Assembly: GCA_052171895.1 (NCBI GenBank)
Contig: JBQMRN010000007.1
Coordinates: forward strand, 2,111 to 66,110
Direction: 5' to 3'
Source of the DNA: Arsenophonus sp. NEOnobi-MAG3
GTDB lineage: Bacteria; Pseudomonadota; Gammaproteobacteria; Enterobacterales; Enterobacteriaceae
Length of the DNA: 64,000 bases
The notes beneath the pieces are model-generated. The model saw only the letters and a list, made by a program, of their open reading frames with translations. It was not told the origin of the DNA and ran no database searches. How positions within the stretch are numbered: position 1 is the stretch's first letter; every line of letters starts with the position of its first letter. The translations under genes and the position numbers were made by a program. This document shows, one piece after another, positions 5,620-63,130 of this stretch.

Positions 5620-6197
5620 TTAGTGAGGGTAGTGGTATTCCAAGAGAGACCATATGCTCTCACTGAGAAGCTCTCCTTAATGAGTTTCTCAGTGAAAATT
5701 ACCGGTGAGAGAGATGCCTAGTAGCTATGCTATGATAGCAACTTTTCGATGTTTTTTGCACGCTTCAGTTAAGGTGATAGCAACGAGCTGTTGAAGCATA
5801 TTCCGTTGCCGATTGGTATATCCCCTCTGGGGGGACCCTTAGGCACTTTACTCTCAATATTGCTAATACCTGTCTGTATAGTATATTTTGGCAAATAATA
5901 ACCATTACGGACGACGGCGCAACATGACGGCTGCGAGAATGCAGTATGTTCAGGATGTTATTGCAGCATGACTTTGTGCTCATGCCTCAAAGGCGGTGGC
6001 TATCAGATGCTTGGCAGGATTACTACGGATGAGTTTATACAAGGGAACAGATGTGATATCTAGTTTCGTGGATACTTGGTATGGTAGACTTTTCATGGTA
6101 TATTATCTCTATATTATTGAAATTATTGATAAAATTAATTAGCAGGAAATACGCCAGCATCTTTAAAATCCAATACACAAGAAATGAGCCTAAACTC
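5620..6197 (-). mobile_element. IS256 5' half
   Basis: Left terminal repeat at ~6175-6197 on the minus strand. Colinear with the first ~550 nt of the other copies. Confidence 0.85.
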
Positions 6198-6610
6198 TAA
6201 GAAAATTATTTTCCATATCTATTTTTTATTTGTTGTTTATTCTTTGTTATTTATTAGGCTAGATTAATTATATTTTTGTAATTTAGAGTATTAAGTTGTG
6301 ATGGACATCATATTAATTAGTTTTCAGATTAATATTCGATCAAATTTGTATTATATATTTCGATGAAAATTAGTTTTATATTTTATTTAATTTCTATTAA
6401 ATCATTATTTTCTATATGTTTTGGAAAATATTAAGTTGATTTTTTATTTTCTATGCCCTCCTGCGAGGGAGTGATTTCATTTATGGCAATGAAGTAAAAT
6501 AGACAATAAAGTAAAAATTACTCATCTAATTATTAATGACTTAACAAGATTATTCTGAATTAGATTTATTAGTCATTTACTTGCTAGTAAATTTATTTGC
6601 TAAATTTATC

Positions 6611-6664
6611 TGAGATTTAATAAGAAAACCAATCAGTTATGATTGGTTTTCTTATTAAATCTCA
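6611..6664. repeat. perfect 25-bp inverted repeat with 4-nt loop, immediately 3' of the decayed tRNA (possible perfected terminator)
   Basis: TGAGATTTAATAAGAAAACCAATCA-gtta-TGATTGGTTTTCTTATTAAATCTCA, checked base by base. Confidence 0.9.
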
Positions 6665-6745
6665 AGCTACGTGAAAGGATTTTTACCCCTAGACTCCCGA
6701 TATCCAATGAGAGTGTACGCTGCCACAGGCTGCAATACATTCTGT
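6665..6745 (-). pseudogene. proL: decayed tRNA-Pro (proL) gene
   Basis: Minus strand CAGAATGTATTGCAGCCTGTGGCAGCGTACACTCTCATTGGATATCGGGAGTCTAGGGGTAAAAATCCTTTCACGTAGC resembles enterobacterial proL as I recall it (CGGCACGTAGCGCAGCCTGGTAGCGCACCGTCATGGGGTGTCGGGGGTCGGAGGTTCAAATCCTCTCGTGCCG). proL normally lies directly downstream of yejM. The T-loop TTC and acceptor stem are broken. Confidence 0.75.
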
Positions 6746-6825
6746 CCAATATAAACTTATTTTATTATAAAATTCATTTTAGTTCAGAATCAATATCAAG
6801 TACTACGACTGCTTGATTTTAAGCA

Positions 6826-8574
6826 TTAATTAATATAAAAATGGGTATATTCAGCAAAAGCTCTTAATAGTTGAGTTAAATCAGGTTTTTCATCTTTTAT
6901 TTTTTTACCTTTATCATCAAAGATATAAACCTTTCCATTTTGATTAATGTATAGCGTTTTATTGGTAAAGTTAATAATCAATGCTTGTTCATCACCTGAT
7001 AAAATCCAGGGTTGATTACGTTTAGGGGTAAAAAGATCTTCACCTTGAGAATAGTCTTTTGGTGAATTATCAACATACAGTAAACGTTGCATTAAGGTGG
7101 TCATAATATCTTGATGACTGGTTAGCTTATTAATCTGTAGCGAGCTATTATTGGGCCAATATACCCATAAAGGCACCTTCATTTGTTTAAAATTAAATTT
7201 ACCATTGTTACTGAGCCATTTTTTTGCTTCATGAGTCTCTGTATTGCTACTATTGTTTGCTGTAATGACGAGAACGGTATTGTTTAACATATTTTTTTGT
7301 TTTAACGTATCAAGTATGCGTTTAATCTCATGATCTAATTGTAATTTATTGTCACTTTGTGATTGATGATTATCAAAACCATTAAGATTAAGAAAAGAAA
7401 ACCAGCGAATATGGTTTTTTATCCTATATAACCATTTAATCCATTCATCGGTAGTTCTATAATCATTACTGGCAGTATTTTCTGGTAATGAATAATCTGC
7501 CAGAATTGCATGACGGAATAATGGCGAGTTAAATCCAGCCGATGAAAACAGACCAAATTGATAGTTTTGATATTTTAATGCTTCAAGTAGGGCGGAAGGT
7601 TTTCTGCTATTAAGTATACTATCTAAATAACTAGGTGATAAACCGTAGAATAGGCTAAATAGCGCGCGTTGATTTTGAATACCTGCACTGAGATGCTGAT
7701 TGAATTGTGTACTTATTGCTTTAACAGCATTTAATGCTGGCATATCTTCAGTAATATTTTGATAACTAAGATTATTAACGACAAGCAGTAATAAATTATA
7801 TTTTGGTGTTTGTTTTTTGTAGCTAAGTGGTTTAAGTGGATATTCAATAGATAGTGCTGAAGGATTGCCTTCTTGTTGTATTTTTCGTTGATATTCCATT
7901 TTGTCAAGATAACCATAGCGTTCAAGAAATTTTCGTGCTGTCATTGGATGACATAGCGGATAATTAGCTCGTTGCATAGTTATTGGGCGATAAAAATTTG
8001 CATCAGCCAAAATATACATTAAATGTGATGCAACAAATGCTATTATGAATATACTTACCAAGAGTTTAGTAAGTGGTTGACGGGTTAGGCTATTTAATTT
8101 TTGCCAACTCCAGGTAGCAAATAACATCTCAATTAAAAAAATAATTGGTACAGAAATAAACATCAACTCCCATTCTCGTACAATTTCACTGTTTTTAGGA
8201 TTTATTAATAATTCCAATAGTAATGGCGTTAAATGGAGGTTATAGTGCGAAAAAAAAACGATATCAAAAATAAGAAAAATTAGTATGCTTGTAGCAAGAA
8301 TGATGTATAGAAATCTTAGTAATCGCTCTGAACAAATAATGAAAGTGAGAGGAAAGATGATTAAAAGATAGCAGGCAAAAATAATAAAGCTAAAATGTCC
8401 AAGCCAACTGACAATAGCGTAAATGCGGCCGAATGATGTACTCGGCCAATCAAAAACAAACAGATATCGGCTACTTAATACTAAACTGAGTATTATATTA
8501 AATAACGTAAACCAATGTCCCCAGCTTATCATTTGGGAAATTTTTTTACGATAGTTTTGAGAGTTGGTTAGCAT
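6826..8574 (-). CDS. yejM: inner-membrane LPS homeostasis protein YejM/PbgA/LapC
   Basis: 582-aa ORF. N-terminus YRKKISQMISWGHWFTLFNI, five TM segments, YRPITMQRANYPL-HPMTARKFLE, C-terminal sulfatase-like domain. Confidence 0.95.
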   Translation of the reverse strand: MLTNSQNYRKKISQMISWGHWFTLFNIILSLVLSSRYLFVFDWPSTSFGRIYAIVSWLGHFSFIIFACYLLIIFPLTFIICSERLLRFLYIILATSILIFLIFDIVFFSHYNLHLTPLLLELLINPKNSEIVREWELMFISVPIIFLIEMLFATWSWQKLNSLTRQPLTKLLVSIFIIAFVASHLMYILADANFYRPITMQRANYPLCHPMTARKFLERYGYLDKMEYQRKIQQEGNPSALSIEYPLKPLSYKKQTPKYNLLLLVVNNLSYQNITEDMPALNAVKAISTQFNQHLSAGIQNQRALFSLFYGLSPSYLDSILNSRKPSALLEALKYQNYQFGLFSSAGFNSPLFRHAILADYSLPENTASNDYRTTDEWIKWLYRIKNHIRWFSFLNLNGFDNHQSQSDNKLQLDHEIKRILDTLKQKNMLNNTVLVITANNSSNTETHEAKKWLSNNGKFNFKQMKVPLWVYWPNNSSLQINKLTSHQDIMTTLMQRLLYVDNSPKDYSQGEDLFTPKRNQPWILSGDEQALIINFTNKTLYINQNGKVYIFDDKGKKIKDEKPDLTQLLRAFAEYTHFYIN

Positions 8575-8591
8575 GTAATATTTTATCTGCT

Positions 8592-8826
8592 AAATTAGTG
8601 AATTTTTTCTTCATTAAAGAAGCAAGTAATGCTTAAGAAAATATGCTACTAGCCGCGCTGCTAGGCTGAGTTAGCGTAGCAGTTGTAAATTAAGTTTTTA
8701 CCGTGTCAACTGATACTATCAATGATAGTATCAGTTTGATGCTTTATGTTTTTCTAATACTTTGACTAATGTTTAGGAGCAGATGTTTAATTTTCTTATC
8801 ACTATAACTTGATGATCGTGGGATAA
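8592..8826 (-). pseudogene. yejL: YejL pseudogene
   Basis: Minus strand P-SS-YSD---K-LL, VLEKHKA-TD, T-V-NLI and FNEEKIH* match YejL. Start codon lost (ATC), frameshifts present, syntenic just upstream of yejM. Confidence 0.8.
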
Positions 8827-9077
8827 TAAAATCCTGAATGAATAAAGCTTTATGCTTTAGCGTATTGTTGCGTTTTTTGCTGTAGATTTTGTCTGATTTT
8901 ACTGCATAAATTCATTTAGTAATATTTTAAATTAACCTGTTTCCATGACTTATAGATCTTATTATATGCCAATAATACAAAAATGTTATATGAATAAATA
9001 TCAATTTTTGGCGTGAGAAAAGGTTATTAATATTTGACTATTATTTATCTTTATGCCATAAGGAAAGAAAGAAGTAA

Positions 9078-9113
9078 ATGATAATTCTGGATTATTAGCC
9101 AGATTGCTTTACA
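9078..9113 (+). pseudogene. yejK: first ~11 codons of nucleoid-associated protein YejK, cut by IS256
   Basis: CTG GAT (T) ATT AGC CAG ATT GCT TTA CA gives LD-ISQIAL, compared with YejK MSLDINQIALH. Divergent from yejL as expected. Confidence 0.6.
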
Positions 9114-10577
9114 GAGTTATTAGCAAATTTGGTGTATGGCGGTTGTTAGGTTACCATGCACTCTGATGATTTGTGAATTTGTTTGCATCCTTAAATTGGA
9201 CGTTATTTATCACTATGGTCGAGATTAAATCCCCTTGAGTGTGCTGGTTCCAGCTTTTCTGAGCAGACTAGTAGTAGTTAAATAGCATTGAAAGGGAAGG
9301 GTTGTTTTCTCGAATCACAGTTTTCGCGTGTCTGGCTTCGTATAGTTTCACTCGCAAAAAAACTGATTCTAATCGGATTCCTCGTTTTTATTAATACCTG
9401 TCTTCTGACGGAGAAGACGTAGAATGCCAGCAATTCTTCTTTTTGATCTTTCTTCAGCTTCTTCATCGCTGCAGAATATTTCTCTAAAAACCTTGGCAAG
9501 AAAACATCAAGGGCTTTATTAGTAGTATTATCCCAGCTCTCTCTGCTAGATACAGAGCTCCTTGCTGCAGCTAAGCCTTAACTTTTTGTTGCATGTCTTT
9601 TGGGAGTGAAGAGATCAGTACATTAACTGTTTTGTATACCCAACCACCTTTGTTGGTTGCTGCGTGTCAAGGAATATCTTTGCATTGTATTCAAAAACTA
9701 AAGGCACCATCTCCCCTAGCAAGCCTTGTGGATACGGTTAAGCTATGTGCTCGTAGCCTATTGAGAAATTCGGCCAAGTTAACTTCTGACTTTTAATAAC
9801 TATTTTTGACCATATCTAGCTCCTTATGTCCATGCGTTATTGACGCCAATAATAACCAGCAGGCAAAGACTATTATCTTGCGCCTGATAGGCGTGTATAT
9901 ATACCATCGGCAAAGAAATAAATGTAGCCTGGTATCGCTTAAATCACGCGAACACCATTACCTCTACTCTTCATGCCATTGTTGTTTCAATCTGCTGATT
10001 GATGATTGTACTTACTGGATGATGGTACTTACTGACAGAAAGACTATGTACTTTTCAGCGAGAATCGTCTAGAGCTTCGTAAAAATTATTGGTGGATATA
10101 CCCTCGAAGCTATATCCATGGTAGCAACTTTTTGAGGTTTTTTGCATATTTCAGATATGTTGATAGCAACGAGCTGTTGAAACATATTCTGTTCCTGCTG
10201 CGATCCCTGATCTTAGACAGTTTACTTTCAATATTCCAATATCAATTTGTATTATAAGTTTGCTCTAGCAAATAATCATTACGGACGACGGGGGGGATGT
10301 GTGAGACGCCCATCTAGAAGGCAGCGTTTTTAGCATATGTTGTCGCAGCATGCCTTCTAGCTCAGCTACAACGCGGCGGTGGTTATCAGCTGCCTGGTAG
10401 CATTACGGATGAATTTATGTAAGGGAATCACAGCTAATATCTGCTTTTGCCGATATTTGTAGGGTAGACTTTTCATGGCATATACCATCTCTCTCTTGTT
10501 GAAATTATTCACAAAATCAATCAGCAGGAACCCCCCAGCATCTTTGAAACTCTATACACTAAAAATGAGTATAACTC
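9114..10577 (-). mobile_element. IS256-family element, full length, degenerate
   Basis: Both terminal repeats present (GAGTTATTAGCAAATTTGGTGTAT at 9114; ATACACTAAAAATGAGTATAACTC ending 10577). No shared flanking duplication. Confidence 0.9.
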
Positions 10578-49217: not shown

Positions 49218-50390
49218 TTGGCAAATACTCATCAAGTTGTAATTCAACAACGACCTTTGATTATTGGTCTCGTTGTTGGAGAAATATCAGGCGACATACT
49301 TGGTGCAGGGCTTATTGGTGCACTAAAACAGCAAGTCCCTAATGCGCGTTTTGTTGGTGTCGCAGGTCCATTAATGCGAGCAGAGGGCTGTGAGGCTTGG
49401 TATGAAATGGAAGAATTTGCTGTGATGGGGATTGTTGAAGTTTTGGGACGACTTGCACGCTTATTACAAATTCGCGCTAACTTAACTAGGTGTTTTTCTA
49501 AATTGCAGCCTGATGTATTTGTTGGGATAGATGCGCCTGACTTTAATATTACCCTTGAATGGAAATTAAAACAAAAAGGTATAAAAACTATTCATTACGT
49601 CAGTCCTTCTGTTTGGGCCTGGAGACAGGATCGTATTTTCAAGATAAGAAAGGCAACCGACCTAGTGCTTGCTTTGTTACCCTTTGAAAAAAGGTTTTAT
49701 GACCGCTACAATATTCCCTGTCGTTTTATCGGGCATACTATGGCTGATAGTATACCGCTACAGCCTGATAAGAAGGGTGCTAGAGCACAACTCAATATAA
49801 CCAATGATGCTAAGTGTTTGGCCATCTTGCCGGGTAGCCGTCGTGCTGAAGTTGAAATACTGAGTGCTAATTTTTTGCACGCTGCACAAATTTTGATAAA
49901 GGATTTTCCTTATTTACAAATCTTAGTTCCTGTTGTTAACCAACAACGTTGGCAACAATTTGAAGCGATTTATCAAGAGATTTCGCCAGCTTTACCACTG
50001 AAAATTTTAGATGGTAAAGCGCAGATAGCTATGATTGCAGCCGATGTAACTTTATTAGCTTCAGGGACAGCTTCATTAGAATGTATGCTAGCAAAGTGTC
50101 CGATGGTAGTTGGATATCGAATGAAACCAGTGACTTATTGGCTAGCTAAACGCCTGGTTAAAATTCCTTTTATTTCATTGCCTAATTTATTGGCAGGCGA
50201 AGAGTTGGTTAAAGAATTTATTCAGGAAGATTGTCAACCTGAACGATTAGCCGGCTCACTTAAGTCCTTACTGATAGATAAAAAAAAGGTTAACCAGCTA
50301 AAACAAACCTTCTTGCAATTACATAAAAGTATCCTTTGCCATGCAGATCAACAAGCAGCAGAAGCAGTCTTGGAGCTAAGTAAAAAATGA
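49218..50390 (+). CDS. lpxB: lipid-A-disaccharide synthase
   Basis: [39 protein letters not shown] and [11 protein letters not shown] start after AGGAG. Confidence 0.96.
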
Positions 50391-50975
50391 ATAATTTTAT
50401 TTATCCTAGAGCAAAATTTATTGCTGGTGTTGATGAGGTTGGTCGAGGACCTTTAGTCGGAGCAGTGATAACAGCCACAGTGTAGATCCAAAACAGCCAA
50501 TAATAGGATTAGCTAATTCTAAAAAATTAACTGAAAATGGCATAGTAATATACTATATATTGAGATTTAAGACAAAGCATTATCTTGGAGTATTGGGCGT
50601 GTGCAGTGGCAAAAGAGATAGATAATATCAATATATTTCAGTCCACTTTTTACCCATGTATACGGAGTGAAGGGACTTATCACTATGCATGATTTTATTT
50701 TAAAAGATGGCAATAAGATCCCAGCTTTTCCTGTACCTTCTCAGGCGATTATTAAAGGTGACAGTTTAGTGCAAAAAATTAGTGCCGCATCAATATTACC
50801 AAAAGTGATCTGAGATAGAGAAATGAGAGACTTAGATATCCTTTTCCAGAGTATGCTTTTTCTCAACATAAAGGCTATCCAACGGTATTTTATCTAGAAA
50901 AACTAGCTCAACATGGTCAAATACAGTTTCATCGCAAAAGATTTGCCCATCTTCGCCGAAGACTGAATTGTAAAA
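50387..50975 (+). pseudogene. rnhB: ribonuclease HII pseudogene
   Basis: [28 protein letters not shown], then frameshifts and stops. Later remnants DGN, IKGDS-V--ISAASIL-KV, HKGYPT-F-LEKL--HG and HRK-F. No ORF of 60 aa or more. Confidence 0.93.
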
Positions 50976-50991
50976 ATATATAGTTAAGAAA

Positions 50992-53900
50992 ATGGCCAAA
51001 CCACATTTTATACACTTACGTGTACATACTGACTATTCCATTATTGATGGATTAGCAAAAATTAACCAACTCATTAATCGAGTGGTAGAATTAGGCATGC
51101 CTGCATTGGCAATAACCGATTTTACTAATCTTTATGGTTTAATAAAATTTTATAATGCGGCACATTCTGCCGGAGTTAAGCCAATTATTGGTGCAGATTT
51201 TTATCTAGAAAGTGAATTACTCGGCGATGAAGTTGCTCATTTAACTATTCTGGCCAGGGATAATAAAGGTTACCATAATCTAATACTACTCATTTCCGCA
51301 GCCTATCAAAAAGGCTATGACGCAATCGGACCAACGATCAGGAGAGAATGGCTGATAATCCATAAAGAGGGGTTATTATTACTTTCTGGTGGCTGTATGG
51401 GCGATGTGGGTAAATTTTTATTACGTGGAAATCAACAACTGGTTGATCAATGTTTAGATTTTTATCAAACTTATTTCCAGGATAACTATTATTTAGAACT
51501 TGTTAGAATTGGGCGCCCTGATGAAGAGAGTTATTTACATGCCGCTGTCCAATTGGCTGCACAAAAAAGTGTGCCAGTCGTTGCTACCAATAATGTACGC
51601 TTTATTAATACTGATGATTTTGCTGCACATGAAATACGGGTAGCGATCCATGATGGTTTTACACTTGCTGATCCAAAAAGACCTAAAAATTATACTCCTC
51701 AGCAATATCTACGCACTGAACAGGAAATGGTTGAATTATTTGCCGACATTCCTGAGGCATTGGAAAATAGTATCGAAATTGCTAAGCGCTGTAATGTGAT
51801 GATGCGTTTAGGTGAATATTTTTTGCCGCAATTCCCAACTGGTGATATAGCAACGGAAGATTTCCTTATCAAATGTGCAAAAGTAGGTCTGGAAGAACGT
51901 TTACAATTTATTTATTCCGACGAGAACGAAAGAGCTGAACGGCGGGTAGCATATGATGAACGTTTAGATATCGAGTTACAAGTGATTAATCAGATGGGAT
52001 TTCCTGGTTATTTTCTGATTGTAATGGAGTTTATTCAATGGTCAAAAGATAACGCTATTCCTGTTGGCCCTGGGCGAGGTTCTGGTGCTGGCTCATTAGT
52101 TGCTTATGCACTAAAAATTACGGACTTAGATCCGCTTCAATTTGATCTTTTATTTGAACGTTTTCTTAATCCTGATCGTGTTTCCATGCCTGACTTTGAT
52201 GTTGATTTTTGTATGGAAAAACGCGATCAGGTCATTGAACATGTTGCGCAAATATATGCTCGTGAAGCTGTCTCACAAATTATTACTTTTGGTACAATGG
52301 CTGCAAAAGCTGTTATTCGAGATGTTGGTCGGGTACTGGATCATCCGTATGGATTTGTTGATCGAATCGCGAAATTAATTCCGCTGGATCCTGGTATGAC
52401 GATTGAAAAGGCGTTTGTTGTAGAGCCACAATTGCAAGAAATTTATGATTCTGATGAAGAAGTTAAGTTGTTGATAGATATGGCCCGCAAACTTGAAGGT
52501 GTGATACGTAATGCAGGTAAACATGCTGGTGGAGTAGTCATAGCGCCGACCAAAATAACAGATTTTGCACCACTTTATTGTGATCATGAAGGGAAAAATC
52601 CGGTTACCCAATTTGATAAAACTGATGTTGAATACGCCGGTTTAGTAAAATTTGATTTTCTTGGTCTTAGAACTTTGACAATCATTAGTTGGACGTTAGA
52701 TATGATTAATCAACGTCTGGCAAAACAAAATTTAGCGCCCATCGATATCGGGACGATCCCTCTTGATGATCAAAAATGTTTTGAACTATTACAACGGGCC
52801 GAAACAACAGCGGTATTCCAACTAGAATCTTGGGGTATGAAAGACTTGATTAAGCGATTGCGCCCTGATTGCTTTGAAGATATGATCGCTTTGGTTGCAC
52901 TTTTTCGTCCAGGCCCATTACAGTCAGGGATGGTGGATAATTTTATTGATCGTAAGCATGGGCGCGAAGCTATCTCTTATCCTGATGTTGAATGGCAGCA
53001 TGACTCATTACAACCGATTTTAGAGTCTACCTATGGTATCATTCTTTATCAAGAACAAGTTATGCAGATTGCTCAGGTGCTTGCTGGTTATACGCTAGGG
53101 GGAGCAGATATGCTTCGCCGGGCTATGGGCAAAAAAAAGCCTGAAGAAATGGCGGAACAACGCTCAGTTTTTGAAGCTGGGGCGGTTAAAAATGGTATTG
53201 ATGGTAAGTTAGGGATGAAAATCTTTAATCTACTAGAAAAATTTGCCGGTTACGGATTTAATAAATCACATTCTGCAGCTTATGCATTAGTTTCTTACCA
53301 GACTCTTTGGTTAAAAACACACTATCCAGCTGAATTTATGGCGGCAGTTATGACAGCGGATATGGATAATACTGAGAAAGTAGTTGCTTTAGTTGATGAA
53401 TGTTGGTCTATGGGGTTAAAAGTATTACCGCCTGATATCAATAGTGGGTTATATCATTTTCATGTCAATGCTAGTGGTGAAATTGTTTATGGAATTGGTG
53501 CAATTAAAGGTGTTGGTGAAAGTCCAATAGAAACTATTATTGAATCGCGTCAAAAAGGAGGTTATTTTAAAGAAATTTTTGATCTTTGTGCACGGGTCAC
53601 TAAAAAGCTTAATCGTAGAGTGATGAAAAAATTAATTATGTCCGGTGCTTTTGATCATTTAGGTCCACACCGTGCCGCGTTAATGTCTTCATTAGAAGAT
53701 GCATTAAAAGCGGCAGATCAACACACTAAAGCAGAATCTATTGGACAAACTGATATGTTTGGCGTATTAGCTGAAGCGCCTGAACAGATTGAACAATCTT
53801 ATGGTAGTGTACCTAAATGGCCTGAACACTTCATATTAGAAGGTGAACGAGAAACATTAGGTCACTATTTAACTGGGCATCCTATTACCGCTTATTTGTC

Positions 53901-54471
53901 TGAAATTAAATATTATACCAGTGGATTGAGATTAAAGGATGTGAATCCAACACCTCAGGGACAGATGTCAACGGTGGTTGGTTTAGCGATGACAGCTAAA
54001 GTACTAACCAGTAAACATGGCAATAGAATAGGCAAATGTACTTTAGATGATCGTTCTGGACGCTTGGATATAATATTATTTTCAGATACTTTAGAAAAGT
54101 ATCAGCATTTACTTAAAAAAGATAAAATATTAATTGCCATAGGTCAAGTCAGCTTTGATGATTTCAATGGTAATAATAAAATGTCTGTTCGTGAATTGAT
54201 GGATCTTAGTGAAGCTCGTGAAAAATATGCTAGAGCTATTGCTATTTCATTAACAGATAAACAAATTGATGACCAATTATTAAACCGTCTTCGTAGCATA
54301 TTGGAACCTTATCGTTCAGGAACAATACCGGTTCATCTTTATTATCGGAAGAAAGATGCTTGCGCTAAATTAAAATTAGGCGTCACTTGGCGAGTTGTTC
54401 CAACTGATAATCTTCTAACTGAGCTTCGAGCTCTGCTAGGTAATCAGCAGGTAGAATTAGAATTTGAGTAA
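50992..54471 (+). CDS. dnaE: DNA polymerase III alpha subunit
   Basis: [14 protein letters not shown] domain, [34 protein letters not shown] and YGFNKSHS. Confidence 0.99.
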
Positions 54472-54482
54472 ATAGGAATATT

Positions 54483-55442
54483 ATGAACCTTAATTTTTTG
54501 GATTTTGAACAGCCAATTTTAGAGTTGGAAGCAAAAATAGACTCATTAACAGCAATAAATCGTCAGGATACCAAGCTAGATATTGATCTAGATGAAGAAG
54601 TCACTAGACTTCGTGAAAAGAGTTTAGAGTTAACACGAAAAATTTTTTCTGAATTAGGTGCTTGGCAAATAGCACAACTTGCTCGGCACCCTATGCGACC
54701 TTATACTTTAGATTATGCTAAGCGTATATTGACGCATTTCCAGGAGCTAGCTGGTGATCGTGCTTATGCTGATGATAAAGCTATTGTTGGTGGGTTGGCT
54801 CGATTGGATGGGCGTCCAGTAATGGTTATTGGTCATCAGAAGGGGCGTGAAACAAAAGAAAAAATTCGACGCAATTTTGGCATGCCAGCACCAGAAGGAT
54901 ACCGTAAGGCTTTACGGTTAATGGAAATCGCTGAGCGTTTTAAGTTACCGATTATTACTTTTATTGATACACCAGGAGGATATCCTGGTGTTGGTGCTGA
55001 GGAACGTGGTCAGTCTGAAGCGATTGCCCGTAATTTACGTGAAATGTCTCGGCTTTTTGTTCCTATTATCTGTACGGTAATAGGTGAGGGTGGGTCTGGA
55101 GGTGCTTTAGCGATTGGTGTTGGTGATAAAGTCAATATGCTGCAGTATAGTACTTATTCTGTAATTTCACCCGAGGGCTGTGCTTCTATTCTTTGGAAAA
55201 GTGCGGATAAAGCACCATTAGCTGCTGAAGCGATGGGAATCACCGCTTTACGTTTAAAATCACTTAATCTAATTGATAATATTGTTGAAGAACCGTTGGG
55301 TGGCGCACATCGTAATTATGAGCAAATTGCGCATAATCTTAAACAGCGTATTTTAAATGATTTAAGTGATATTGATTTATTTAGTCCTGAAGAATTGAGA
55401 AACCGTCGTTATCAACGCTTAATGGAATGTGGTTATTGCTAG
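54483..55442 (+). CDS. accA: acetyl-CoA carboxylase carboxyltransferase alpha
   Basis: [32 protein letters not shown] and [10 protein letters not shown]. Confidence 0.98.
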
Positions 55443-55461
55443 TTTTGTAGTAGATAATAAA

Positions 55462-55515
55462 TAAAAAATAGAAATAACTATTAATTATTAATTTAATGAT
55501 TATTTCTATTTTTTA
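55462..55515. repeat. 16-bp perfect inverted repeat with 22-nt loop in the accA-tilS spacer
   Basis: TAAAAAATAGAAATAA ... TTATTTCTATTTTTTA. Very AT-rich, possibly a terminator. Confidence 0.6.
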
Positions 55516-55601
55516 ATGTTTAAAAATTTATTTTTTATTTTTATACAAAATGTTTATTTACAATAAATTATATCACTATTAATAGTATAATAAGTGAAAA
55601 T

Positions 55602-56975
55602 ATGGCAATAAATAATTTCGATAGAGGTAGTAAGAGTAATATGAATGCTGATGATGAGCCTAAATTACTGAACAAAATTATAAAAACCATCGCCTCTACC
55701 TCTACACGCCGAATATTGCTAAGTTTTAGTGGTGGACTGGATTCAACAGTTTTATTACATGCTTTAGTGTCATTACGTCAAACCACAGTGCCAAACCTTA
55801 AGATTCGCGCGGTTTTTATTCATCATGGACTTAATGATAAAGCTGATGATTGGGCTAGCCATTGCCAAAAAGTTTGTTTTGACTGGCAGGTAGAGTTTTA
55901 TTCACAGCATGTTTATATCGATCCAGCTAAAAAAGGGATCGAAGCAGCGGCCCGTGATGCACGATATCACGTCTTTCGTAAAATATTATTACCAGAGGAA
56001 ATTATTGTTACTGCCCAACATTTAGATGATCAAGCAGAAACTTTTTTATTAGCATTAAAACGGGGGAGTGGGCCAGCAGGTTTATCTTCCATGCCAATTT
56101 CTATTCCATTTGCTGATACCTATTTAATTAGGCCCCTATTATCATTCAGCCGTCAGCAATTAATTTTATATGCTCAAAAAAAATCGCTTTCTTGGATAGA
56201 AGACGATAGTAATCAAGATCAGCGCTATGATCGTAACTTTTTACGTTTAACTATAATGCCGCATTTTAATCAGCGTTGGCCGTATTTTTCGCTAGCAGTG
56301 GCAAGAAGTGCTAGTTTATGTGCAGAACAAGAAGCTTTATTAAATGAATTACTAAAAGATTATTTATCTCAGCTAATAATAGCAGAAGGAGCCTTGCAGC
56401 TTGATGCTTTAGTCAGTTATTCTGAAATAAAACGTAATGCAATATTACGTCGTTGGTTGAGTTTACATCGAATTTTGATGCCTTCTCGTGTTCAATTAAA
56501 ACAGATTTGGCAAGACGTGATCTGTGCGCGTCCAGATGCAGAGCCACAATTTATATTAGCTAACAATAATGTTATCCGGCGTTTTAAACAACAGCTTTGG
56601 TTGCTGCCACAATTTAACGATTTGACTAAAATTTGTTTAGCGTGGCAGCTGCCTGCTGCAATTAAATTGCCCGATAGCTTAGGTGTGCTAATAATCACAG
56701 ATCATGGAACGCAGTTTCGTGCGCCGTTATCAAATGAGAAGGTTACTATTCGATTTGGATTAAAAGGAAATATTAAAATTATTGGTCGTCAACACACTAG
56801 ACGGAGTAAAAAGCTTTGGCAGGAGTTAGGCGTAGCACCTTGGTTAAGGGATAGAACGCCTTTGATTTATTATAATGATGAACTTATTGCAGCTGTTGGC
56901 GTATTTATTACTCAATCAGGCCAATGTATTCAAGGGCAGCCTGAATTGAAAGTAAAATGGATAAGGGATAAATAA
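55602..56975 (+). CDS. tilS: tRNA(Ile)-lysidine synthetase
   Basis: SFSGGLDSTVLLH, HHGL, EAAARDARY, TAQHLDDQAET, RPLL and EDDSNQD-RYDRNFLR. True start may be the ATG at 55641. Confidence 0.96.
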   Translation: MAINNFDRGSKSNMNADDEPKLLNKIIKTIASTSTRRILLSFSGGLDSTVLLHALVSLRQTTVPNLKIRAVFIHHGLNDKADDWASHCQKVCFDWQVEFYSQHVYIDPAKKGIEAAARDARYHVFRKILLPEEIIVTAQHLDDQAETFLLALKRGSGPAGLSSMPISIPFADTYLIRPLLSFSRQQLILYAQKKSLSWIEDDSNQDQRYDRNFLRLTIMPHFNQRWPYFSLAVARSASLCAEQEALLNELLKDYLSQLIIAEGALQLDALVSYSEIKRNAILRRWLSLHRILMPSRVQLKQIWQDVICARPDAEPQFILANNNVIRRFKQQLWLLPQFNDLTKICLAWQLPAAIKLPDSLGVLIITDHGTQFRAPLSNEKVTIRFGLKGNIKIIGRQHTRRSKKLWQELGVAPWLRDRTPLIYYNDELIAAVGVFITQSGQCIQGQPELKVKWIRDK

Positions 56976-57034
56976 CCTTTATCTTAAATAGTAAGGCTTA
57001 TTATTGTGCCGGTATAATAATGGTTTCTTTTATT

Positions 57035-57260
57035 ATCTAGTAAAGATAATATAACTATCTTGTCAATTTCAGGATAAGTAAAACTAACAATATATCTAAT
57101 CGCAGATGCTTTTTTCACTAGCAATATCAACAAGCAGATATTTAATCCGTTTTTAAAACCAGATCAATTGATCTGGTTTATGATTATTTAGAACTACGCT
57201 TGCCAGCGTAGTTCTAAATAATCATAGTCATCGCAGTTGATTGGTTTGTATTTACTATAT
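57035..57260 (-). pseudogene. rof: Rho-binding antiterminator Rof pseudogene with its centre replaced by palindromes
   Basis: Minus strand KYKPINCDDYDYLEL...DLV-K-RI-YLLVDIA-EK-HLRLD-IVSFTYPEI compared with E. coli Rof YQPINCDDYDNLELACQ...DLVSRKNVEYLVVE...LRLDKITSFSHPEIG. Downstream of tilS on the opposite strand, as in E. coli. Confidence 0.85.
57156..57226. repeat. two abutting perfect palindromes (24-bp palindrome; 22-bp-arm hairpin with 4-nt loop)
   Basis: AAACCAGATCAA|TTGATCTGGTTT (57156-57179) and TATGATTATTTAGAACTACGCT-tgcc-AGCGTAGTTCTAAATAATCATA (57179-57226). Confidence 0.92.
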
Positions 57261-57442
57261 TTAAATGTAATCCCTTCTTTATCCCCCCTCACCACTATTA
57301 TTAAGTAGCAGTTATTTGCTGCCTCCTTTGAATATTTGTAATTTTAAGCATTTACTGCTTAAAGTGCATAATAGCACCATGCTTTTTTAAGAAAAGATAA
57401 AAAATCAGCATGAAATCTCACTTATTAATATTTATTATATGC

Positions 57443-58902
57443 GAGTTATTAGCAAATCTGGTGTATAACGGTCAGGCTACGCTTCGCTCTGATGCTTCAT
57501 GAATCTCTTCTGCATCCTTAAATTTTACGTTCTTTACTACCAGGGTTAGTAGGTTAAAATTCTATTACCCAGTTCCCGCTTTTTTGAGTAGACTGTACAA
57601 GCTTAAATACCATGAAAGTGTTGTTTTTTCGAACTACAGTTCTTCTCGCTTCGCTTTCGTAGTCTTAGTGTCGCAAAAGCCGATTCAATCGGATTCGTCG
57701 TTCCTTATTGACCACAAGTGCTCTGACAGGAAGTTGTAGAATACCAGAAGTTTTTTTCGATTTTTCTCCAGTGTTTTCATCGCTGTAAGATATTTCGCTG
57801 AAAAGATTAGATTAGCAAAAAAAAGGTTAAGAGCTTTATTAGCAAGATCGCCGGCCCTCTTGCTAGGCAGAGAGCTTCCCGTAGCTTAACTCAGCCTTAA
57901 CTTTCGATTGCATGCCTCTTTTTGAGGACTGACGCCAGCCCATTAGTTGTTTGTATACTCAACAGCGTTGGTTATGCGTGTCCTAGTGGGATATCTTTGC
58001 CATTGGATTCTAAAAACTAAGGCCACCGTCTCCCTAGTAAGGCTAGGATATAAGGTTAAGTCGCGCGCTCGCAGGGCACATTAATAAGTTCGCGGCTCTG
58101 TTTGATTTGACTCTCGATAACTATCTTCGAGCTGAACTAGCTCCTTTACATCCATACTCACTGACATAAATGATGACTATCAGAGCAGGAAAAAGCAATC
58201 ATCTTGCCTGATATGATTGTATATGTCATCGGCCCAGAAATAAACGTAGCGCGTATCACTTAAATCATACAGGCACCATATTGTCTATGTTCTTTCAAGT
58301 TATTGCTATTTCAATCTCCTGATTGGGTACTACCAGAGAGAACCATGTGCTTTTCAGCGAGAAACCTTCGCCCCTCGAACTTCGTGAAAATCATCGGTGG
58401 AGATGTGGTATTGCAAGAAGTATACAGCCAGCATGGTAGTAACTTTTTAAGGCTTTTTTCACGCTTCAGATAAGGCGATAGCAATGAGCTGTTGAAGCAT
58501 ATTCCGTTGCGGTTGCGGATCCCTATCCGCTCCCTGTGAATTTAGACACTTTAATCTCAACATTACCAATATCACTCTGTATAGTTAGCTCTGGTGAATA
58601 ATCGTTACAAAGACTACGAATGACTCCAGTCGAAGAAGGTGGGGTTCAGCATGTTATATATTATCGCAGCGTAGGCTTTGAGTTCAGCCTTAACGGCGGT
58701 AGCTATCAAGCTGCGCCACTGGCACCAGTATGGATGAGTTCATGCAAGGAATCAGAGGTAATATCTAGTTTTGCGGATACTTGTATGGGGGTAGACTTTT
58801 TTATGGCATATCATCTCTCTGCTGTTGAAATTATTCACGAGATCAATCAGCAGGATAGGTTAGTTTCTCTAAAACACTATACACCAGAAATGAGCATAAC
58901 TC
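57443..58902 (-). mobile_element. IS256-family element, full length, degenerate
   Basis: GAGTTATTAGCAAATCTGGTGTAT at 57443 and ATACACCAGAAATGAGCATAACTC ending 58902. Confidence 0.9.
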
Positions 58903-61359: not shown

Positions 61360-61640
61360 TAAAATATTAGCTATCATATCTTCAAGTTTATGATGGGAAA
61401 ATTGAATAATTGCTGCTAATGCTTTGTTCTTTATCTGGACTACTTATTTCTATATCGATATAACTACCTTGTTATGAGTCTAGCATCAACATCACTATAA
61501 CACTATCTGCTTGAGCTTCTATATTATGGAAATTGCGTAACAGTACCATAGATTCAAATTATTTGATCAGTTCACAAAGCATTATTATTGGCCTGCCATA
61601 CATAATGATACCTTGCTGGTTTTTATAATAATGCTCTGAT
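61360..61640 (-). pseudogene. npr: PTS(Ntr) phosphocarrier NPr pseudogene
   Basis: G--GRP, VLLRN, EAQADSVI-MLMLDS--G-YI-IE and ALAAII compared with NPr GMHARP...VLLRN...EAEANSVIALLMLDSAKG. Follows rapZ. Confidence 0.8.
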
Positions 61641-62566: not shown

Positions 62567-63032
62567 TTATTCAGTAATGATTTTATAGAATTCTTCATTA
62601 CTTTTCTCAGCACGTAAACGACGACATAGGTTCTTATCAGCTAACCGTTTTGCAATTAAAGAGAGTGTATATAAATGTATTTTATATTTCTGCAAAGGAA
62701 TTAATACTGCAAACAGTAAATCAACTGATTGATTATCAATGGCATCAATAGCAATTTGTTCATCTAAATGGAGAAAAACACCAACTGCGGTGAATGAATT
62801 GTATTTATTTAATTTTCCATGAGGGATTGCAATACCTTCACCGATACCAGTTGTGCCGACTTTTTCACGGGTTAATAATGAGTCAAAAACAATATTTTCA
62901 GGTACATTCAGTGCAATTGAAGCAACTTCACTAATAATCTCTAGTGCTCTTTTTTTACTCGTGCAATGTACATTATTTAGTGTACATGATGGTGTTAATA
63001 TTTAGCTTAATGATAATTTTTTTATTGTTCAT
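62567..63032 (-). pseudogene. ptsN: EIIA(Ntr) gene with lesions only at the 5' end
   Basis: The ATG at 63032 frame stops after 19 codons. The PtsN frame (SKKRALEIISE...TREK-GTTGIG-GIAIPHGKL...DLLFA...KRLADK--CRRLR) is open for ~144 codons to TAA at 62567, but follows an A-run frameshift and an in-frame TAA. Confidence 0.85.
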
Positions 63033-63035
63033 TAG

Positions 63036-63130
63036 ATTTATTCGCTTATGGTAAAATATACCAGATATTCATAATGAATATCTGGTATGAACAATACTGG
63101 CATTGATAATCTATATTTAGTGTCATAGTG
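63036..63130 (-). pseudogene. hpf: collapsed remnant of hibernation factor hpf containing a 31-bp palindrome
   Basis: AAGGGCACACT-ATG ACA CTA AAT ATA resembles the hpf start (GACACT ATG CAG CTC AAC ATT). Position directly upstream of ptsN; only ~95 nt left. ATACCAGATATTCAT-a-ATGAATATCTGGTAT at 63058-63088. Confidence 0.5.

Follow-up and report, generated by a model that had tools for sequence, protein, structure and literature searches.

Template switching at quasi-palindromes is a classic mutational hotspot mechanism of Escherichia coli (PMC7202029, citing Ripley 1982 and Rosche et al. 1997), and its rate is modulated by 3' exonucleases and fork direction, among other factors. In the Ripley 1982 model, in the E. 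coli thyA, rpsL and lacZ quasi-palindrome (QP) reporters and in the intermolecular strand switch of Rosche, Trinh & Sinden 1997 (cited in PMC7202029 and PMC5941160), an imperfect inverted repeat is perfected by copying from one arm to the other, which leaves clustered, templated multi-base substitutions and 1-nt indels and keeps the flanking sequence. In proteobacteria more broadly, the correction of imperfect to perfect inverted repeats by template switching has been argued for in a study that surveyed E. coli K-12 and saw no short inverted repeats whose arms reach 20 bp (PMC5941160).

The same process has been traced in yeast and in RNA genes. In 2021, Abraham & Hazkani-Covo (PMC8604942) reported that arm homogenisation and spacer inversion can take place in one intermolecular template switch in yeast, as in REG2, where 5-bp arms became 16-bp arms and the spacer was inverted in one event. 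In RNA genes, including those of miRNAs, template-switch mutations (TSMs) create hairpins, perfect or extend stems and invert loops, mostly of 4 nt (PMC8794818), and have been described with a four-point model (Loytynoja & Goldman 2017, PMC5453318; Monttinen & Loytynoja 2022, PMC8794818).

Here, we describe a locus of an Arsenophonus symbiont at which two adjoining imperfect inverted repeats, lying in an already dead rof gene, were very probably perfected by replication template switching. The locus is part of a 64-kb stretch of DNA, analysed as a whole and called the window below, and the rof remnant in it has lost its start codon (ATG>ACA equivalent, 57266-57268) and carries several further indels and stops, being recognisable by YKPINCDDYDYLEL at its 5' end and ...VSFTYPEIDKIV at its 3' end. 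The coordinates of all features are collected in the table.

Table. Features of the window that bear on the palindromes in rof, with related hairpins and genes.
Feature	Position	Strand	Description
rof (Rho-modulator) pseudogene remnant	about 57030-57268	-	Identified by translation, tblastn with E. coli Rof and DNA alignments
tilS	55602-56975	+	Intact, convergent with rof
Hairpin 1	57179-57200 / 57205-57226		Perfect inverted repeat (100% match), 22-nt arms, 4-nt loop
Hairpin 1, source arm	57205-57226	-	rof-sense 5' arm, codons YDYLEL + A
Hairpin 1, loop	57201-57204	-	GGCA in rof sense, TGCC on the + strand; inverted
Hairpin 1, target arm	57179-57200	-	Place of codons (Q)HSLQLTI; overwritten to the exact complement of the source arm
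Palindrome 2	57156-57179		24 bp, perfect; one base in common with hairpin 1
Palindrome 2, rof-sense 5' half	57168-57179	-	Place of codons KLD; CTGG>CCAG
Palindrome 2, rof-sense 3' half	57156-57167	-	Codons IDL; TTGATCTG ancestral; likely source
25-nt deletion junction	57170-57171	-	Centre of palindrome 2; AATGGAGAGATTATTGAAGGCAAAG in L010 (codons NGEIIEGK + one base)
tRNA-Pro terminator hairpin	6611-6664	-	Perfect, 25-nt arms, 4-nt loop
Degraded tRNA-Pro(GGG) gene	6665-6748	-	Intact in four relatives, undetectable in the window
yejL hairpin	8708-8736	-	Perfect, 14-nt arms, 1-nt loop; within the yejL (DUF1414) pseudogene
Fourth hairpin	63058-63088		Perfect, 15-nt arms, 1-nt loop; on the upstream side of the ptsN remnant, about 40 nt away
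rnhB (RNase HII) pseudogene	50387-50977	+	Many in-frame stops; between full-length lpxB and dnaE ORFs

The orthologous rof loci of relatives were fetched through tilS, whose product is 70-91% identical to TilS of 16 Arsenophonus and Phlomobacter genomes. Among these relatives, rof is intact in A. nasoniae, Ca. A. triatominarum, Ca. A. nilaparvatae and Ca. Phlomobacter, and decayed in a clade of five MAGs (L003, L005, L007, L008 and L017); aligned as DNA in rof sense, the window is collinear with the orthologous rof in 14 relatives. The nearest relative by TilS (91%), L002 (AFZbadi-MAG3), carries a deletion of about 105 bp with a 7-nt filler, GATTCGG (L002:5374-5794 versus window 57134-57237), which takes the whole palindrome block together with 11 and 22 nt of its flanks, so that L002 cannot date the palindromes and their immediate ancestor is not observed. 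This deletion might itself have been stimulated by the palindromes.

The surroundings are in an advanced state of decay. The window holds just 25 ORFs of at least 120 aa, no RNA genes were found anywhere in it by Rfam (at gathering thresholds) or ARAGORN, and synteny with A. nasoniae stops at 57388, all of which points to heavy pseudogenisation and rearrangement. The genes yaeP, yaeQ, arfB and nlpE were not found after rof in the window.

The preliminary description had reported a hairpin with 22-bp arms and a 24-bp perfect palindrome in the rof remnant, and both are present, at 57179-57226 and 57156-57179, respectively. In palindrome 2, TG>CA at 57174-57175 is the sole change that makes the 5' half complementary to the 3' half. 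The two structures greatly exceed chance expectation: a match to the hairpin 1 arm occurred in 0 of 100 shuffled sequences, and the 83-nt palindrome block, folded as single-stranded DNA, reaches -29.3 kcal/mol (z = -14.5). All stem pairs of the two structures taken together are Watson-Crick (34/34, with zero G-T), a pattern that agrees more readily with templating by DNA than with selection for RNA folding. At 57149-57159, palindrome 2 is adjoined by a third, near-perfect mini-palindrome, GTTTTAAAAAC.

Palindromes of this kind can be made by chimeric fold-back reads, and REP or MITE elements are themselves palindromic, so that an assembly artefact or an inserted MITE/REP-like mobile element comes to mind; we regard either origin as extremely improbable. 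A Logan assembly of SRR34985935, possibly built from the same reads as the window, is 100% identical to it over 52605-57661, palindromes included, and a second Logan contig of this run is identical over 5826-9142; the Logan assemblies thereby match the window across all three hairpins considered here (rof, tRNA-Pro and yejL), and the identity across the palindromes makes an artefact unlikely. A 48-bp hairpin is also shorter than a typical short read, which counts further against it. As for a mobile element, this origin was rejected on the grounds that the hairpin 1 arm has no other match in the 64-kb window with up to 3 mismatches allowed, and that the locus holds no inserted length relative to its relatives.

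Comparison with the relatives separates two layers of change in rof. In the preliminary description, about 20 codons from the middle of Rof had given way to inverted flank copies; eight codons were indeed lost, in an old shared deletion, but about twelve are still in place, in rewritten form. The only sizeable gap in the window rof is 25 nt long, and its junction falls in the middle of palindrome 2 instead of separating the two palindromes. It is common to L003, L005, L007, L008 and L017, as is a 1-nt deletion (ATCAT-AAAC), and since these five relatives have the gap without having perfect palindromes, the deletion predates the perfect palindromes. It made the core GATCAATTGATC of palindrome 2. 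Intact rof orthologues, for their part, carry no such palindromes.

What the relatives carry instead is an imperfect version of the same structures. An imperfect inverted repeat is already present at the same position in L003, L005, L007, L008 and L017, and in L005 and L007 the outer 8 bp of hairpin 1 (TATGATTA/TAATCATA) are already paired contiguously. Counted at homologous columns, with 25 nt removed from intact rof for the comparison, the Watson-Crick pairs of hairpin 1 go from 9/22 in intact rof through 12-15/22 in the decayed clade to 22/22 in the window, and those of palindrome 2 from 2-8/12 in intact rof through mostly 8-9/12 in the clade to 12/12. The clade and intact rof agree in three states that the window does not have (GTCTTC within the 3' arm, CTGGAT at palindrome 2, and how the loop is oriented), which means that the window state is the derived one. 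This contradicts the converse view, in which perfect palindromes would be ancestral and the imperfect ones of the relatives would have decayed from them.

The direction of copying can be read from the two arms of hairpin 1. The source arm equals the sequence of the relatives bar the insertion of a single base (either A at 57209 or C at 57208), and the 3' arm has been rewritten at every mismatch. The insertion itself (GAACT-CGCT > GAACTACGCT) is found in no relative, so at least one extra mutation is needed; a mosaic origin, with the inserted A templated from the other arm as in yejL (see below), gave no base-for-base fit, and the insertion was left as an independent indel. In an automated one-event template-switch search, which accepted only exact reverse-complement matches with the relatives as they are today, copying of arm 1 into arm 2 came out best for 7 of the 9 relatives that were scored (the exceptions being L003 and L011, with L017 outside the scored set), and one inverted copy from arm 1 reduces the edit distance to most relatives. 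The drop in edit distance is just 4-7 in the four clade relatives with this solution, because the relatives have diverged and the source arm has its 1-nt insertion. States unique to the window fall on 5 of 31 sites in the target tract versus 8 of 170 elsewhere in rof (one-sided Fisher p = 0.03), a modest enrichment that comes from a conservative count and from a tract whose alignment is ambiguous. The reading of the altered sequence, on each side, as an inverted copy templated by the flank next to it is borne out.

The preliminary description had attributed these copies to a double-strand break in rof, with some 20 codons lost and the ends either folding back and self-priming or being hairpin-sealed and reopened, like P-nucleotides, before they were joined. 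Superficially, such a break fits the geometry: the tracts that were overwritten (57179-57204 and the half of palindrome 2 next to it) lie end to end, each mirroring its own outer flank, and the loop is inverted. Yet we consider it highly improbable. There was no net loss at this step, the span from TATGATT to CATA measuring 48 nt in the window, 48 nt in intact rof and 50 nt in the decayed clade; the arms of hairpin 1 stop exactly at the edges of the ancestral quasi-palindrome, with no run into new flank beyond the existing complementarity; the sole deletion is the 25-nt one at the centre of palindrome 2, shared with relatives that have no perfect palindromes; and the same conversion, loop flip included, is found at an isolated hairpin with neither deletion nor junction. 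Enterobacterales are not generally known to have Ku/LigD end-joining, which also counts against a break. A break whose ends were rejoined across a deletion of about 60 nt is thus largely refuted by the collinearity with relatives, the conserved span and the position of the older deletion elsewhere.

The loop of hairpin 1 adds a second signature of template switching. Read in rof sense, the window has ...CGCT GGCA AGCG... and the relatives have ...CGCT TG(C/T)C AGCA..., GGCA being the exact reverse complement of the TGCC found in L011, L012 and L015; most other relatives have TGTC. The inversion is exact if the ancestor had TGC, as these three do, and holds at 3 of the 4 positions if it had TGT, as in the clade. 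The flip rests on 2 of the 4 bases and needs an ancestral TGCC, and the clade that has the window's 25-nt deletion carries TGTC. The loop flip that had been proposed for hairpin 1 is therefore seen, as GGCA against an ancestral-like TGCC, and the accompanying remark that ACQR now reads on the opposite strand is right for ACQ but not for R, since that codon is not ancestral (relatives have H or Q) and is merely the start of the arm. Hairpin 1 as a whole can be written as L + revcomp(L + loop), 26 nt (loop and 3' arm) having been replaced by an opposite-strand copy of the 5' arm and loop.

The same signature recurs at other places in the window, which contains 6 perfect hairpins with arms of at least 12 nt, versus 0.08 expected from simulated sequences of the same composition. 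Two further hairpins of the window were traced against the yejM loci of relatives, and with one in Ca. A. melophagi this brings the hairpins traced to template switching to three in the window and one outside it. At the tRNA-Pro terminator, relatives have a stem of about 12 bp, GAAAACCAATCA GTTA TGATTGGTTTTC, which is extended in the window: the arm that is 5' in yejM sense is collinear with that of the relatives, and its complement has replaced 13 nt at the distal end of the other arm. The loop has changed from GTTA to TAAC, an exact inversion at 4/4 positions, and the polarity of the source arm is as in rof.

In yejL, relatives with an intact gene have the quasi-palindrome AACTGAT-TTATCA T TGATAGTATTAGGT, and the window has AACTGATACTATCA T TGATAGTATCAGTT. 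Here, each arm has been partly corrected against the other, a +1 frameshift included, and the loop is unflipped; with both arms changed as a mosaic and no flip, at least two events are called for, so that not every case can be put down to a single intermolecular event. The remnant of yejL (minus strand, about 8595-8825) has also lost its start codon (ATG>ATC) and carries another 1-nt insertion.

In Ca. A. melophagi, a perfect hairpin with 34-nt arms and an 8-nt loop lies 3' of tilS (L014:5803-5878). It extends a terminator stem of about 8 bp, the right arm being collinear with relatives and the left overwritten. Another perfect hairpin of the same genome, with 14-nt arms, stands directly after tilS (L014:5386-5414). 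In one of the decayed-rof MAGs, L005:2802-2831 is a perfect hairpin with 14-nt arms that pairs at 13/14 positions in its sister L017 and is imperfect in other clade members, which makes it a candidate for another correction.

A fourth hairpin of the window lies near the ptsN remnant. For this site, a metagenome scan with RapZ gave just distant Enterobacterales (about 89-91% protein identity), none of which aligns there in DNA. The ptsN remnant (62570-63016) has an early in-frame stop, npr (61391-61603) has in-frame stops, and rpoN and hpf gave no tblastn match in the window.

These additional loci also bear on the number of steps at rof. It is possible, although in our view unlikely, that the perfect arms were produced by intramolecular fold-back of the nascent strand with the loop unchanged, and that the 4-nt loops were flipped later by separate events. 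Inversions confined to the loop of an inverted repeat that is perfect to begin with form the commoner class both in yeast (9/10 events, PMC8604942) and in rRNA (69 cases, PMC8794818), and the yejL arms, corrected in both directions with no loop flip, indicate that intramolecular events occur in this genome. This course needs more events, however, and both hairpins with a 4-nt loop are flipped and have the same source-arm polarity, as one intermolecular event predicts, a weak argument at n=2 (chance about 0.25). For hairpin 1, we infer a single intermolecular event in preference to arm correction followed by a separate loop flip.

The perfection of the hairpins could also reflect selection for a function, e.g. 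as a replacement transcription terminator or barrier 3' of tilS. A scan of the + strand turned up a single terminator-like site, formed by palindrome 2 and the T-rich tail that follows it, at a distance of 180 nt downstream of tilS, and the conserved tilS/rof terminator hairpin of relatives (CCCTTACT...AGTAAGGG), at 56976-57005, is degraded in the window. Nevertheless, the count of one terminator-like match equals the shuffle expectation of 1.0, the match itself is weak (10 pairs, 4 of them G-C, with the tail ATGATTATTT), and hairpin 1 has no U-tract on either strand. Neither rof hairpin is perfect in relatives. The 34 perfect Watson-Crick pairs, with no G-U among them, and the clustered and templated nature of the changes point to a mutational origin, and the same conversions are seen in dead yejL and beside a dead tRNA gene, where no function is expected. 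We therefore hold selection to be improbable as the origin of the hairpins, and any function could have been acquired only afterwards, by co-option. The intergenic terminator hairpin between accA and tilS (55455-55522), which has perfect 12-15-nt arms in most relatives (AAAAATGGAAATAACTAT...ATGGTTATTTCCATTTTT), is down to 83% complementarity in the window.

Under replication template switching, hairpin 1 would have formed as follows. The nascent strand, in rof sense (the minus strand of the window), would first have copied the 5' arm of hairpin 1. Across the fork, it would next have paired with the imperfect 3' arm of the parental strand of the same sense, and copied 26 nt backwards on that strand, first the loop and then the 5' arm. 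It would then have resumed its own template where the outer 7-8 bp (TATGATT/AATCATA) were matched beforehand, leaving L + revcomp(loop) + revcomp(L), a perfect 22-bp stem with a flipped loop and unchanged length. At palindrome 2, the 3' half would have served as template for the change of CTGG to CCAG in the 5' half, either in a second event or by a further switch in the same one; the target half of palindrome 2 is contiguous with the target arm of hairpin 1. GC skew is positive on the + strand, which suggests that this strand is leading and, more faintly, that the nascent minus strand was the lagging one.

In its outcome, the rof locus resembles the QP reporters of E. coli in that an imperfect repeat was perfected by arm-to-arm copying, with clustered templated substitutions, 1-nt indels and a preserved flank, but it differs in scale and in the kind of evidence. 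In the reporters, few bases are corrected, in stems of about 10-18 bp, and the event is observed, whereas at rof about 7-10 mismatches would have been corrected at once or in few steps in 22-bp arms, and the event is deduced from the phylogeny of a pseudogene. The yeast REG2 case (Abraham & Hazkani-Covo 2021, PMC8604942) matches rof in its arrangement of L + revcomp(spacer) + revcomp(L), in its 4-nt spacer and in having arms of more than 9 bp. The yeast cases are coding and under selection, in contrast to rof and tRNA-Pro, which concern dead DNA of a bacterial symbiont, with arms of 22 and 25 nt and, at rof, two abutting palindromes. With the TSMs of RNA genes and miRNAs, our loci have in common that the four-point model fits, as L...(1), revcomp of (3)..(2), (4)...R in the order 3<1<2<4, and that stems are extended (at the tRNA-Pro and L014 terminators) and 4-nt loops are inverted; unlike those TSMs, they show no sign of a functional RNA product and lie in neutral, decaying sequence.

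In chloroplast non-coding DNA, minute hairpin-associated inversions, in which short loops between inverted repeats flip to their reverse complement, were reportedly described by Kelchner and Wendel in 1996. In those cases the stems pre-exist and are perfect, while at rof the perfection of the arms coincides with the loop flip.

In the rof palindromes, a mutational mechanism that is already known can be seen at work on neutral DNA, in a new and unusually clear case. The preliminary description had presented them as an unusual route of gene decay, a label that does not hold, since template switching is a common and documented mutational route (PMC8604942, PMC8794818). The value of the locus lies in its being a phylogenetically polarised natural example of template switching in a bacterium, graded from intact gene through quasi-palindrome to perfect palindrome, with source and target arms identified and with loop inversion at two independent loci. 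A literature search, limited in range, returned no paper on template switching in endosymbiont pseudogenes. The example carries a caution for the reading of such genomes: when pseudogenes show clustered substitutions, or deletions that seem to have been filled with inverted flank copies, a single template-switch event is the reading to try first, ahead of exotic break repair or many independent mutations.

The rate of such events may be raised in this lineage. In yeast, loss of RNase H2 raises the frequency of quasi-palindrome-extending mutations (PMC3820800), and the dead rnhB of the window may bear on the rate of template switching. Further genes of relevance here, those for ExoI, ExoVII, RecJ and SbcCD, are located beyond the window. 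Together, the unusual arm lengths and the dead rnhB hint at a raised template-switch rate in reduced symbionts. We suggest, tentatively, that template switching in reduced Arsenophonus might reach unusually far and occur unusually often, so that dead DNA would be progressively palindromised into perfect hairpins of 22-34 bp, perhaps through loss of restraining enzymes (rnhB being dead), and that these hairpins might then seed deletions, as the deletion of about 105 bp in L002 would illustrate. The wider interest of the finding would hinge on a systematic enrichment of long template-switch hairpins in reduced symbiont genomes. Should long perfect hairpins prove as dense in the whole genome as here, and should their density track the loss of RNase HII or 3' exonucleases from one symbiont lineage to another, they would offer a simple sequence-based gauge of a fault in replication fidelity and of one way in which genomes erode; and, if the suggestion is true, palindromisation followed by deletion would be a distinct and measurable route by which symbiont genomes erode.
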